The position numbers are program-made. A stretch of DNA of 64,000 nucleotides, taken from Escherichia coli O157:H7. GTDB lineage: Bacteria; Pseudomonadota; Gammaproteobacteria; Enterobacterales; Enterobacteriaceae. This document shows positions 37,201-40,200 of this stretch, piece by piece (positions within the stretch are counted from its first letter, which is position 1; each line of letters opens with the position of its first letter). The stretch lies in the NCBI RefSeq assembly GCF_013167455.1, contig NZ_CP038328.1. One strand, written 5' to 3'.

Positions 37201-40200
37201 CACCACTTTGTCTAATTCGTCAGATTCTGACCAGACGGTTCAGGCTGTACGCTTACATTGATACTGACAATTCAACGTCCGTCATCGCTCCCCCAATGTG
37301 TTGAGGTTAGGTAGAAATGATAACAAATACACCGCTCCTGCCCCTGTAACCTCCCCTTTTTTATACGCTCATTTTTGCGCACTTTTTCGATCATCACGTA
37401 TCGGTTTCGTTTTGCGCTTCCTGTTGCGTTTCGTTTTTGAGAAAAATGCGCAGTTTTTTGCGCACTTTTTGAGGTGTCTATCCCCCTGCAAGCCGCGTCA
37501 TATCTGGCTTTGCTCTGTTTGTCTGTGTGATCGATTTTGTGATCAGTTTTATGATCGATTTGCGCACTTTTTTGCGCATTTTTTCAGGGATTTTTCACCC
37601 CATCGAAGAGGCTTCTAAGGGGCTGTGAAGTGGGTAGCATTTTGCTGTGATGGAAGGACTACCGCTACTGTCTGATAATGGTGACGGAGGCCGCTATGTT
37701 CGGCTCTGATTGCAGCCTGCCGTATATTCACCAATTTACCTGGCTGTTATTTCCATAACCCGTAATGTCGCCGATCCCGTCTGATTCCCATATCGTCAAC
37801 AGTCTTATTTACAGCATCCTGAAGTTCGCAAGGCATATTTCCCGCCGTCTGGCTATATGTTCTCGCTGCGGATCGGTGTGGGCCTCTTTCATTACGTCAA
37901 GCCAACGAGCGGCGGCTCTTCGCCATAGTCCCTGAGATTCCAGTTGTTCGGCTTTTTTATCAGTTATTGTGTCCATATTAACTTCCGTCTCTTCGCCCTG
38001 TTTCACCCCTGTACTTCGTGCCCCGTAAAGGATCTTCTTTTTTCTGGTCAATCCCCATATCTTTAAGCGTTCTGGTCGCTGCTGCCCTGACGGCGCATAC
38101 ATGCCCCCACTCTGTTGTTTTTGGTCTGGTGGCTTTTGCCGTGCATTGCGCCCTTCGTTGGGTAATATAGTGCCTCTCTTCATCAGTTTTTGCCTGTCTG
38201 AACAATTCTCCCCAGCGTTCAGCAGCACGCCGCCAGAGGCCGCTATTCTCCAGCGCTTCAGCCTTGTCATCACGTATCATCTGTACCCCGCCGATTCTGT
38301 CCTTTCAAAATTTGTCTTATGGCTTATTGTATGAGGGATTCATCCTACAACAAGAAAGGTCACTATGAGACTGACGCAATACAAAAAAGAGATCCTCAGT
38401 TACTTCACTCCCGACAATCTGGCGTGGGTTACTGCCGAAATTGGCAGTCCGCCGTTTGATGTCTCCGGTGTGGCTTACCTGCTGCATGGTATGGATTCAT
38501 TCAACAGCCGGTATCAGATCGAATCAACAAGGCGCACGCTGGAAGCTATGGTGCGTGATGGTCTTCTTGAGCGGATTAATGTGTATGAGCGTCGTGAGGG
38601 CGCTGGTGATGGTGTTCGTCGAAAGGTGGCGCGTTATGGCCTGCCTGGTCATTCTGTTGTGGTGCGTGACGGTGAGGGCCGGAACGGTGCAATTGACGGC
38701 GAATGTATACGCATCAATGCTACAGATGTGGTGCTGGTGGAGGGGCAATAAAAAACCCTGAAAGATTTCTCCGGGTGCTCCAGTTGCACGTGGCAGAAAT
38801 CCTTCAGGGTCAGCCGTAACGGGCCTCTGTACAGAGGGCTCCAGTTGCCCAGAGATGAGCACCCGCTACAGCCTGTTGTGATAAGCCGCTTTACAGTGAG
38901 CTCCAGTTGCTCAAAGAGGCGCGTTTTTATCACAACCTGACCGCGATAACCCGCTGTACAGAGGGCTTCAATTGCCCAAAGAGGCGCATTCTTATCGCGG
39001 CATGACGAAATCACCGTGATGTTTTCGTCGTTCACTCATCCCGATGTGTGGGAGATGCACCGGAATGAGTGCCGAAAAGCCGCTGGCTGGCTTCATGCAG
39101 TCGGACTCAGTTGCCCGGGGCGAACACCATCAACGGCCTTTTGGTGGTGATTATAGCGAATCGCGATAATTGAGCAAATACGGTGATGAGATGCGTATCA
39201 CGGTAGCGCTAAATCGTCGCCTGCATCACTGAAGCTGTAATTTCTCCATTCATCCTGCGGATTAATCCCCATCTCTTTCAGCGTTCTGTCTGCGGCCTTT
39301 TTCACATCGCCAAAGGTGACGAACTGCTCAGGCATACGACGGGTTTTACTGATGCATATCGCCCGACGTCTGGCAGCTTCCTCGCGTTCACTGTCCGTTT
39401 CTGCGTGAAGAAGAACCTCAGCCCATCGGGTCGCCGCACGTCGCCATAAACCGCGCTCCTCAAGTTTCTGTGCCACGCTGTCCGTCATCACTGGCTTTAC
39501 CTCCGGCTGATTACTGCTGACTGTTTTTCTGCTTCATCTGCTCCAGTCTCCGCTTCAGTAGTTCGCTGGCTACTGATTTATCTTCTTCCGTGACTTCACC
39601 GCAAGGTTGCCCGTTCAGTCCATACCGTGCGCCGCCAGCGACAATGGCTTTCAGGTATCGCGTCGTGTGGATGTATGAGGTTAATGCGCCACGTAATACG
39701 CCATGACCAATCGCCAGTTCCCGCGCCTTCGCGTCCTGCAACATATCGTGTATCACGCCAGCCTTAAGGGGTTTTATATTCTCTGCCCCAAACAGTTCAG
39801 GCCAGTACTCAGCCAGTCGGTTTATCCTCCTGCGGTTTTTTCGCTGCCGCTTTGTCATGTGCTGCCACGGTATGCGCCGTGATGGTTTACGTGTGGTCTG
39901 GTCCTGTTGTGTGGTCTGCTGGTTCATGTTGTGCTCCTGTCATTCAGAACGGAATATCGTCAGAGAACGGGTCATCACCTCCCGCTGGTGGCTGATTCCC
40001 CCGTGTTCCGGTCTGTCGTTTTGCTCTTTCCAGTGCTTCGGTCGCCTTCCCCTGTTGCCCCCGCTTCCCGCCAGGACGCGCCGAACGGGCACTGATTACG
40101 CTGTCAGCGATAACCTGCCAGCCCTGCCGTATTTCTCCGTTCTGTCCGGTCCACTGACTGATCTGCATGTTACCCGCCACGCTGATAAGGTCGCCTTTTT

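Follow-up and report, generated by a model that had tools for sequence, protein, structure and literature searches.

An array of hairpins on an Escherichia coli phage satellite copies alleles of an Stx-phage ORF80 hairpin and may encode a FinP-like antisense RNA

The window analysed here is a 64-kb stretch (64,000 nucleotides) of contig NZ_CP038328.1 from Escherichia coli O157:H7, and the block of repeats under study is located in it within an island which is a PICI/P4-like phage satellite. In the island, the block is positioned downstream of the primase-SSB replication zone. A convergent ORF on the plus strand (38365..38751, 128 aa), for which neither a Pfam nor a PHROG match was obtained, ends at the predicted terminator hairpin of the block. 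Upstream of the predicted RNA, a minus-strand PerC-family gene (39198..39491) lies between the promoter-like site of the predicted RNA and a ProQ/FinO-domain gene (39511..39927, minus strand, 138 aa), which is thus two genes upstream of the RNA and shares its orientation. The FinO domain is well supported (Pfam PF04352, E = 9.9e-26, with 105/109 model positions covered), and the RefSeq label 'ProQ/FINO family protein' is present in 8/8 annotated E. coli islands fetched. These neighbours, PerC-like genes and a FinO-domain gene (PF04352, E = 1e-25), are the same as those named in a first-pass annotation of this DNA.

That annotation had placed a non-coding block of imperfect direct repeats, together with a hairpin, at 38749-39010. 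The block exists, but it does not end there, and the feature spans from ~38746 to ~39177. The hairpin is found at 38755-38770 / 38795-38810, with 16-nt arms that are 94% complementary and 24 nt between them; its lone imperfect position is A·C on the plus strand and G·U on the minus strand. Three clear copies of the direct repeat are present at 38824, 38886 and 38951 (spacing of 62 and 65 nt, 76-84% identity across 38 nt), and the repeat pair 38880/38945 is 79% identical over a length of 62 nt. A search for the repeat core GGGCTCCAGTTGCCC in which up to three mismatches were permitted returned four copies in the 64-kb window, with two mismatches at most, and all of them are within the block (38775, 38836, 38898 and 38963). 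The count of four is by itself unremarkable, as it is reached in 12/100 shuffles; the weight is carried by the clustering, the common structure and the conservation of the repeats. A further core near 39100, which had been taken as partial, is at that position but belongs to a fifth full hairpin unit (39075-39141). Tandem Repeats Finder reported no array for the block because the units are too diverged. In total, seven successive hairpins are present in ~38746-39177, five of which are modules with a common GNGC-AAYUGRA-GCNC apex.

Read along the minus strand, the feature begins with a promoter-like site (39150..39177) consisting of a -35 hexamer TTGCTC (39177..39172), a 16-nt spacer and a -10 hexamer TATAAT (39155..39150). 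Both hexamers and the 16-nt spacing are invariant in 9/9 islands, the sequence alongside is more variable, and the sole substitution in the spacer is found in one island (L071). A consensus promoter scan did not report this site because its -35 hexamer matches at only 3/6 positions. We infer that the site acts as a promoter, with a predicted transcription start around 39145-39142. It is followed by module 5 (39075..39141), a hairpin copying type E among the alleles of a hairpin in the phage gene ORF80 (see below), the apex of which carries a 1-nt deletion in this window (GGGCAACU-GAGUCC). Two inverted repeats that are not phage-derived come next, namely hairpin A (39033..39071, 14-bp stem) and the invariant hairpin B (39004..39029). 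Module 4 (38940..39001) is a copy of allele type A/C with the outer stem GCCGCGAUAA / UUAUCGCGGU; module 3 (38875..38936), also an inverted repeat, is nearest to type C and has the apex stem GAGC/GCUC; and the hairpin core of module 2 (38812..38873) copies type B. Module 1 (38755..38810, apex GUGC/GCAC) is nearest to type D and doubles as the predicted terminator stem.

On the minus strand, module 1 is followed by the U-run UUUUUUAUUG (38746..38755), at which the RNA is predicted to end and which overlaps the convergent ORF at its stop codon. The segment GGTTTTTTATTGCCC is the same in 8/9 islands, and the T-run is present in 9/9, with one extra T in L072. The four internal modules are without a U-run, whereas every phage allele has one. 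Since the U6 after the last module is conserved, module 1 looks like an intrinsic terminator. Its fold is stable (-33.4 kcal/mol, z = -5.9). The predicted architecture consists of seven hairpins, the last of which is followed by a U6 kept across islands. Taken together, the block looks like a non-coding RNA gene of ~400 nt, predicted to be transcribed from the minus strand between ~39145 and 38748.

Folding analysis distinguishes the two strands. The z-score of the block fold is -8.2 for the minus strand and -5.0 for the plus strand, the alignment fold energy is -159.8 kcal/mol compared with -127.7 kcal/mol, and the minus strand folds better by 6-29 kcal/mol in 9/9 islands. Function appears to reside in the minus strand. 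In the alignment of nine islands, 98.3% of the cells are paired. Covariation across homologous islands, which had been suggested as a check, revealed compensatory changes: both-sided changes occur at 10 pairs, compared with 5.2 ± 1.2 in shuffled alignments (0/500 reach this number) and 0-4 in slid controls. Module 1 (helix 13) contains four pairs with compensatory changes. The apex pair 322-336 of module 2 is GC in seven islands and UA in two, and the apex pair 259-271 of module 3 is AU in six islands and GC in two. The inner stem of module 4 shows a double compensatory change from CG/GC to UA/UA (pairs 184-218 and 185-217), and the apex pairs 44-69 and 49-63 of module 5 covary between GC, UA and AU. 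Hairpin A (helix 2) is 100% paired in the nine islands, with G-U/G-C variation, and hairpin B (helix 3) is invariant in all nine.

Three roles had been proposed for the block, and they fare differently. That of a structured RNA is supported by the minus-strand promoter-like site and terminator, the seven hairpins with their covarying pairs and the better minus-strand fold. A second, crr-like iteron set is not supported, as the P4-type octamer TGTTCACC does not occur in the block (38700-39250); its seven copies sit elsewhere, at 40892-41113, adjoining the primase gene, and the block units conserve pairing rather than sequence, so that an iteron reading of the P4 ori/crr kind was rejected. A binding array for a regulator is conceivable solely in the form of a decoy RNA. 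The units retain pairing as their stem sequences change, contrary to the behaviour of a protein-binding repeat in double-stranded DNA.

Of 5426 complete E. coli genomes, 112-115 retain the block, and its arrangement is conserved among islands that are 80-100% identical. The islands are distinguished by indels and by a 65-nt module deletion, which leaves island L074 with one module fewer. Since neither spacing (62 or 65 nt) is divisible by three and the islands differ by indels, a coding repeat was rejected and the modules are non-coding in the satellite. Dispersed palindromic elements (REP/BIME or MITE-like) were also rejected: among the matches listed for the 5426 E. coli genomes, only the island and an ORF80-type phage gene are found. 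Searches with the Rfam 15 covariance models at E-values up to 10 gave no credible match for the block or the phage hairpin, and the element is not described in the literature searched (FinO on satellites, PICI antisense RNA, 933W packaging sites and the apex sequence).

Sequence comparison reveals that each module is a 79-100% identical copy of a different allele of one hairpin in ORF80/gp47. This homology was not seen in the first-pass annotation and wholly alters the interpretation of the block. In BLAST searches, single modules match one site of the LPD38/LPD5 (ORF80) gene in Stx prophages and phages, and this site is matched in 183 phage records and, among the 437 E. coli genomes with any block match, in the majority. 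Module 4 is identical to phage alleles A and C at 54-56/61 positions (88-92% by BLAST to Sp5 ECs_1242, 933W and others), and its homologues in other islands reach 61/61 with a phage allele (L071) and 60/61 with Sp5 (L064). Module 5 matches the phage E alleles at 59-60/67 positions (up to 64/68 in other islands), with a BLAST match in LPD38 genes. The identity of module 3 to the C allele is up to 51/62, and that of module 2 to allele B is about 47/53-47/58 (94.7% over 38 nt against LPD38/LPD5 genes by BLAST). Module 1 is about 48/61-48/62 identical to the D allele of locus L053. BLAST against phages gave no match for hairpins A and B, nor for module 1. The plus strand of the window corresponds to the sense strand of ORF80; therefore, a minus-strand RNA would be antisense to ORF80. 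Overall, ORF80 occurs in 425/5426 genomes. An ORF80 prophage is present in 3/3 satellite-bearing genomes checked, and 16/16 sampled satellite genomes contain additional matching places. When viral contigs were scanned for a pattern of two apex cores, more than 80 loci matched. Inspection of one of them, L077, revealed a coding repeat of the collagen-like GGAGCAACT type; the hits with multiple copies are probably repeats of this kind as well, and we regard the scan as an artefact.

ORF80/gp47 is an 8.4-kb gene of short-tailed Stx phages of the 933W/Sp5 type (933W, Sp5, phi24B) and encodes a virion polyvalent protein. Among the essential genes of these Shiga-toxin-spreading phages, it is both the largest and the least understood. 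It has been reported that infectious Sp5 particles require ORF80 (PMC5155283), and that the protein is a virion protein in phi24B (preprint 10.64898/2026.04.10.717836). The hairpin site, which in Sakai falls at 1301551-1301611 (ECs_1242), is located ~5.5 kb inside the coding region and occurs in five allele types, the stems of which are unrelated yet all pair. The phage apex stem covaries (GGGC/GCCC, GUGC/GCAC, AGGC/GCCU), and the change from GGGC to GUGC alters two amino acids together, G to V and P to H. The phage loop is conserved where a synonymous change is possible, reading CAA and never CAG. The hairpin is also locally the most diverged segment of ORF80, for example with 76% identity compared with 89% on its upstream side and 99% on its downstream side. 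Judged from its sequence variation, the phage hairpin is selected at the level of nucleic acid. On the antisense strand, it is directly preceded by a promoter-like TTGCGA-17-TATTTT and directly followed by a U-run, and it resembles the main part of a short RNA (~70-75 nt) encoded antisense in cis. In sliding-window folding of ORF80, the hairpin reaches ~-27 kcal/mol, the mean being -14 to -16 kcal/mol; other windows are more stable, and therefore the hairpin is not singled out by fold energy alone. Distant ORF80 homologues (35% identity, high-GC contigs) contain no related hairpin.

The homology and orientation of the modules, their conserved structure with compensatory changes, the promoter-like and terminator signals and the FinO domain are all observed in silico. 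Starting from them, we propose that the block encodes a trans-antisense RNA against ORF80 which resembles FinP and would be chaperoned by the FinO-domain protein, a reading to which we assign a probability of roughly one half. According to this model, the minus-strand RNA (39145 to 38748) would carry five modules, each a different allele of the ORF80 hairpin, and the module loops (7-nt AAYUGRA on a short apex stem) would form kissing contacts with the hairpin in the ORF80 mRNA. Pairing could then extend through up to ~61 nt, and expression of ORF80 would drop through cleavage of the mRNA or a block of its translation. With one module per phage allele type, a single satellite could address all the ORF80 variants encountered in this analysis. 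The RNA body is complementary to the ORF80 sense strand at 48/62 up to 61/61 positions, which suggests that the satellite may control or block Stx phages through RNA. The AAYUGRA loop contains a YUNR U-turn motif, the role of which has been described earlier (PMC6562991), and all four observed loop variants fit YUNR; as evidence on its own this is weak, since ~1 in 5 random 7-nt loops contain such a motif.

The ProQ/FinO protein is, by virtue of its adjacency only, a candidate RNA chaperone for the block RNA. It may stabilize the RNA via the terminator hairpin and aid pairing, as FinO does with FinP and traJ. Binding to terminator hairpins and promotion of antisense pairing are both described for FinO-family proteins (review: PMC9977716). 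When genome contigs were scanned with the FinO protein, only one locus was returned, in Serratia, at 50% identity. FinO homologues that are ~50% identical and reside on other elements (L065-L067) have neither the apex motifs nor a similar hairpin array downstream.

Several observations count against the antisense model, among them the weak -35 hexamer (3/6) and the lack of such an array beside the ~50% identical FinO homologues. Most satellite loops read AACUGGA or AACUGAA and all phage loops found read UYCAAUU, so that the kissing pair has a central C·A mismatch, the satellite C standing in place of the U with which the phage loop would pair. A loop selected for complementarity alone would read AAUUGRA. 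Where satellite and prophage share a genome (three pairs checked), identity between the prophage and its best-matching module is no higher than 52-54 of 61-62 positions. The target is 5.5 kb into the coding sequence rather than at the ribosome-binding site, and repression would therefore require cleavage or decay of the mRNA. Moreover, a satellite relying on these phages for its transfer would itself need the ORF80 protein. The satellite loops tolerate Y/R changes at the cost of full complementarity with the known phage loops, and this is accommodated by the main rival to the antisense model, in which the same RNA serves as a decoy or mimic of the phage antisense hairpin RNA and titrates a protein that binds the conserved apex and loop, in the manner of the CsrB/RsmZ sponge RNAs; this protein could be a phage factor, a host factor or the island's own ProQ/FinO protein. 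Bearing several hairpins with the same loop on one transcript would suit a decoy, and the fact that the phage loop reads CAA and never CAG despite the synonymous option suggests sequence-specific recognition. However, a conserved apex would suffice for a decoy, leaving unexplained the variable stems that track phage alleles up to 61/61. A sponge for CsrA in particular is unlikely and was rejected, as about half of the module loops read GAA and are without GGA. On balance we consider a decoy unlikely, though less so than the two readings that follow.

Base-pair covariation does not by itself separate RNA from single-stranded DNA, and the block might instead be a DNA-level site copied from the helper phage (pac-like, or for recombination or replication) and recognized in hairpin or cruciform form. 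Copying of helper packaging signals is common among satellites, as with PICI cos and Rpp, and one module per phage allele type would suit recognition by several helpers, with different helpers able to act through different allelic versions. We find such a site improbable. The P4-type iterons are located elsewhere, at 40892-41113, and the promoter-like site, the terminal U-run, the loss of the U-run internally and the minus-strand G-U pairs indicate a transcript. An in-frame deletion of ORF80 in Sp5, which left 9 nt at each end, allowed normal excision and packaging at wild-type level and was complemented in trans (PMC5155283); the hairpin is therefore not essential in cis in the phage, and these published data make a packaging site (pac or cos) unlikely. 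We give equally little credence to the view that the block has no present function and consists of helper late-gene fragments, duplicated and homogenized by recombination, in the 'late zone' where PICIs of Gram-negative bacteria are reported to take up helper late genes (PMC10111431). In a variant of this view, phage ORF80 could undergo gene conversion in which the modules serve as silent donor cassettes. The 61/61 identity is restricted to the hairpin, pointing to recent exchange between phage and satellite, and one module has been lost from island L074, both of which are compatible with fragments of this kind. Against them, only hairpin units of 62-70 nt are retained, with no flanking coding sequence and mutually out of frame; compensatory changes maintain the pairing; the promoter-like site and the terminator are invariant though the modules vary; and the arrangement is kept across the 80-100% identical islands of 112-115 genomes.

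A further extension of the antisense model is tentative and, in our estimate, clearly less probable than the model itself. The satellite may maintain an inherited and renewable collection of RNA guides directed at a single essential phage gene. Its modules would be captured alleles of a hypervariable phage hairpin, jointly expressed as a single antisense RNA and served by the FinO protein. An arms race could then be envisaged in which stem changes that preserve the fold on the phage side are met by the gain or conversion of modules on the satellite side. If so, this would be a Cas-free form of antisense-RNA phage interference or helper control on a phage satellite. The antisense model, if true, would provide the first known satellite antisense RNA against a helper or enemy phage that is built from copies of the phage's own regulatory hairpin. 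It would also assign a function to the FinO-domain genes of E. coli PICI/P4-like islands and reveal an unrecognized regulatory RNA element within ORF80/gp47, and expression of the array would offer a simple means to reduce the output of infectious Stx phage.

Comparison with known systems places the predicted RNA closest in kind to FinP/FinO of F-like plasmids, to which the pairs FopA/Inc RNA and RocC/RocR are related. As in FinP/FinO, a FinO-domain protein is encoded by the element that carries the RNA, and the predicted RNA is made up of stem-loops with an intrinsic terminator hairpin and a U tail at its end. The loop complementarity to a hairpin of the target mRNA that marks FinP is incomplete in the block, where most loops have the central C·A mismatch. 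FinP, however, is encoded in cis opposite the traJ 5' UTR and has two stem-loops. The presumed target of the block RNA is on a separate prophage, so that it would act in trans, and lies deep in a coding region rather than in a 5' UTR or at a ribosome-binding site; the block RNA has five allelic modules and two additional hairpins, and its binding by a FinO-like protein is our proposal. On the phage side, the nearest counterparts are cis-antisense RNAs such as OOP of lambda, directed against cII, and Sar of P22, directed against ant. The phage element resembles them in having a predicted hairpin of ~70-75 nt with a U tail and a promoter-like site, antisense within a phage gene. In contrast to OOP and Sar, it resides in a late structural or ejection gene and not in a regulatory gene, and it has no sequence similarity to them and no Rfam match.

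CsrB and RsmZ also carry many hairpins with a common loop motif on one RNA, but the loop of the block is AAYUGRA with GGA in about half of the cases, and its stems track phage alleles, which a sponge would not need. The likeness to CRISPR is an analogy only, i.e. a tandem array of variants of one invader or helper gene in a single predicted RNA. The block has no repeat-spacer units, its units being whole hairpins from one locus with a conserved apex and variable stems; there is no sign of programmed acquisition, and no cas genes are present in the annotated island. Capture of late genes in the PICI 'late zone' (PMC10111431) is similar in island position and in drawing on the late gene of a helper-type phage, but the block differs in holding five non-coding, structured copies of 62-70 nt, in antisense and with a promoter-like site of their own. 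The immunity RNAs P4 CI, P1-P7 C4 and IsrK are likewise small structured regulatory RNAs of satellites or phages, and differ from the block in locus, sequence and structure and in acting on the transcripts of their own element. The same island also contains Rfam matches to C4 and isrK at 43982-44185.

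The non-coding block at about 38746–39177 of the window carries no annotation in RefSeq and is present in 112–115 of 5426 complete E. coli genomes at 80–100% identity. Our analysis bears out both the hairpin and the three to four degenerate repeats described here in the first-pass annotation. The hairpin is formed by two arms of 16 nt each (38755–38770 and 38795–38810) with one imperfect position, and three repeat copies starting at 38824, 38886 and 38951 (spacing of 62 and 65 nt) are 76–84% identical, with 79% identity for the 62-nt pair at 38880/38945. The core GGGCTCCAGTTGCCC occurs four times in the 64-kb window, always within the block (up to three mismatches were permitted, at most two were seen), and what had been regarded as a partial core near 39100 is a complete fifth unit. 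Tandem Repeats Finder reported nothing on the block because its units are too diverged. The five units are referred to as modules 1 to 5 (38755–38810, 38812–38873, 38875–38936, 38940–39001 and 39075–39141). The suggestion that the block might be a second, crr-like iteron set fails, since the P4 alpha-binding octamer TGTTCACC is absent from it and lies beside the primase. Seven copies, on both strands, are clustered in 220 bp (40892–41113) just downstream of the primase gene (41127–42953, minus strand), where only two would be expected across the whole window; this cluster is probably the P4-type replication origin of the island.

The proposal of a structured RNA locus is supported by secondary-structure and covariation analysis of nine aligned islands (that of the window, one from an IMG/VR contig and seven from E. 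coli genomes). The block folds far better than shuffled sequence (z = -8.2 for the minus strand and -5.0 for the plus strand). The consensus fold contains seven hairpins in a row, namely module 5, two hairpins that are not phage-derived, and modules 4, 3, 2 and 1. Fold energy of the alignment is -159.8 kcal/mol for the minus strand against -127.7 for the plus strand, and the minus strand is better by 6–29 kcal/mol in every aligned sequence. In the named structure 98.3% of cells are paired, and 10 pairs have changed on both sides, compared with 5.2 ± 1.2 in shuffles (none of the 500 gets that high) and 0–4 in slid controls.

When the block is compared with E. coli genomes and phages by sensitive BLAST, single units match one position in one phage gene at 88–95% identity. 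The gene, 8.4 kb long and coding for the LPD38/LPD5 "polyvalent protein" of short-tailed Stx phages, is Sp5 ECs_1242 (ORF80) in Sakai and has homologues in 933W and 183 phage records; the plus strand of the window corresponds to its sense strand. The hairpin at this site, taken from 58 IMG/VR phage loci and several prophages, falls into five allele types (A–E). The outer stems differ between types without any relation in sequence, yet their arms are always complementary (GCCGCGATAA/TTATCGCGGC, ACCCTGATGG/CCGTCAGGGT, AACCCTGAT/ATCAGGGTT, GCCGCTGA/TCAACGGC), and the apex GGGC-TYCAATT-GCCC is common to all five. The apex stem covaries among the phage alleles (GGGC/GCCC, GTGC/GCAC, AGGC/GCCT). Because the switch from GGGC to GTGC changes two codons together (Gly to Val and Pro to His) and the pairing is kept, selection acts on pairing and not on the protein. 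Local divergence in ORF80 peaks at the hairpin; locus L004, for example, is 89% identical to Sp5 upstream of it, 76% across it and 99% downstream.

The hairpin is also a mosaic boundary in ORF80 among the loci compared (L002–L005, L026, L041, L053–L057). Phages of type E are only 51–55% identical to Sp5 over the 300 nt upstream, and over the 300 nt downstream they are 91–97% identical in three of four (L003, L054, L055) and 78% in L057.

In all alleles the sense strand carries an A-rich run directly before (5′ to) the hairpin; read on the antisense strand it is a U-run right after the hairpin, which gives the predicted shape of an intrinsic terminator. Just upstream of the intragenic hairpin and U-run, the Sakai Sp5 locus has an antisense promoter-like site, TTGCGA-17-TATTTT (L002 9062–9100), and the A2 and T6 positions of its -10 are kept in all allele types (TATTTT, TACTTT, TATATT). 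This site is only suggestive, its weight being limited by its location inside conserved coding sequence. These features suggest that ORF80 holds a putative phage cis-antisense RNA of about 70–75 nt.

Judged by sequence, the five satellite modules correspond one-to-one to the five phage allele types. Module 5 is closest to allele E (best identity 64/68), module 4 to A/C (61/61 in island L071, and 60/61 to Sp5 in L064), module 3 to C (51/62), module 2 to B (47/53) and module 1 to D (48/61), and the identity ends at the hairpin edges. The satellite copies are non-coding: they are spaced at intervals not divisible by three, islands differ from one another by indels, and in E. coli JNEC-KY176 (L074) a 65-nt deletion (alignment A1 columns 215–279) has fused modules 4 and 3, removing exactly one module. 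The neighbouring SSB and 128-aa genes of this strain are annotated as pseudogenes.

From a conserved promoter-like site, a terminal T-run and internal modules without a U-run, we infer that the block is a putative gene transcribed from the minus strand. The promoter-like site TTGCTC-16-TATAAT (39177..39150, minus strand) is conserved in its two hexamers and in their 16-nt distance across the nine islands, with one spacer substitution, and the surrounding sequence is more variable. Its -35 is weak, and a consensus promoter scan did not report it. After the last module, GGGTTTTTTATTGCCC is unchanged in eight of the nine islands, and all nine retain the T-run. A U-run follows the hairpin in all phage alleles but in none of the four internal modules, as read-through to one 3′ end would require.

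We favour a reading in which the block RNA would be antisense to ORF80 mRNA and would act in trans as a FinP/FinO-like system covering the known ORF80 alleles, because of the antisense orientation, the YUNR loops, the need for ORF80 and the FinO-family gene nearby. The module loops read AAYUGRA, with a YUNR motif in all four variants seen. YUNR U-turns have been reported to speed loop-loop contact in many sense/antisense pairs (PMC6562991), although the match, taken alone, is weak evidence. The two loop positions that vary coincide exactly with the third-codon positions of phage codons CTY and CAR (chance about 1 in 21), which would fit the satellite tracking or copying phage coding variation. 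Sp5 cannot form infectious particles without ORF80 (PMC5155283), and the phi24B homologue, gp47, is abundant in virions and has been proposed to be ejected; lower ORF80 expression would mean fewer infectious phage. Proteins of the FinO family bind the hairpins of terminators and promote pairing between antisense RNAs and their targets (PMC9977716), and a gene of this family sits two genes upstream of the putative RNA.

ORF80-type sequence is present in 425 of the 5426 genomes. In raw comparisons that ignore STEC phylogeny, additional matching places were found in 16 of 16 sampled satellite-bearing genomes, and an ORF80 prophage in all three checked directly. In the small sample of genomes whose satellite is identical to that of the window (L196–L198), the resident ORF80 prophage has allele A and the best module (38940–39001) matches it at only 54/61. 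The perfect 61/61 match was seen only between a satellite and a phage of different sources, and so few cases do not support an interpretation.

Several observations speak against the antisense reading. Many satellite loops carry C at a position that would have to be U for them to be fully complementary to the phage loops, in every one found. Satellites and prophages that share a genome agree at only 52–54 of 61–62 positions, the target site is far inside a coding region, and the FinO gene is tied to the RNA by adjacency alone. The main rival is a decoy or mimic RNA, which would titrate an apex-binding protein instead of pairing with the mRNA. That the block is a DNA-level packaging site is unlikely, as Sp5 with an in-frame ORF80 deletion (9 nt left at each end) still excises and packages normally and is complemented in trans (PMC5155283). 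A block of neutral remnants is at odds with its compensatory changes and with its invariant promoter-like site and terminator.

Rfam has no family for the element, a literature search with the apex sequence returned no paper containing it, and the satellite, FinO and Stx-phage literature searched held no description of it. The parts are each familiar: antisense RNA, a FinO chaperone, and PICIs that capture late-gene DNA from their helpers (PMC10111431). The combination is new, namely tandem allelic copies of one phage hairpin, antisense and putatively expressed from a satellite, and its novelty would rise if an arms-race reading were confirmed.

The host island is a Gram-negative PICI/P4-like satellite, flanked by yicC and dinD in its O157:H7 version. 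Its genes run from integrase, HTH regulator, Ant, an icd-like gene, primase and SSB to ProQ/FinO (FinO domain, Pfam PF04352, E = 1e-25), PerC, the block, a convergent 128-aa ORF, two further PerC genes and a Q-family antiterminator. C4 antisense RNA and isrK are found at 43982–44185 on the minus strand (Rfam 73.8 and 52.1 bits, both above the gathering scores), the P4 CI-like immunity RNA region of the island. In locus L065 (4629–4847), about 2 kb downstream of a FinO homologue (49% identity), there are four to five copies of AAAGTGTCAACC, some making a perfect inverted repeat of 12 nt; they resemble iterons or operators and have no relation to the hairpin modules. IS66-family genes (tnpA, tnpB, tnpC-like; 35494–37185) adjoin the PerC genes in the window, whereas YeeE/YedE, an antiterminator Q gene and IS2 follow them in the O157:H7 version L001; the distal end of the island therefore varies by strain.
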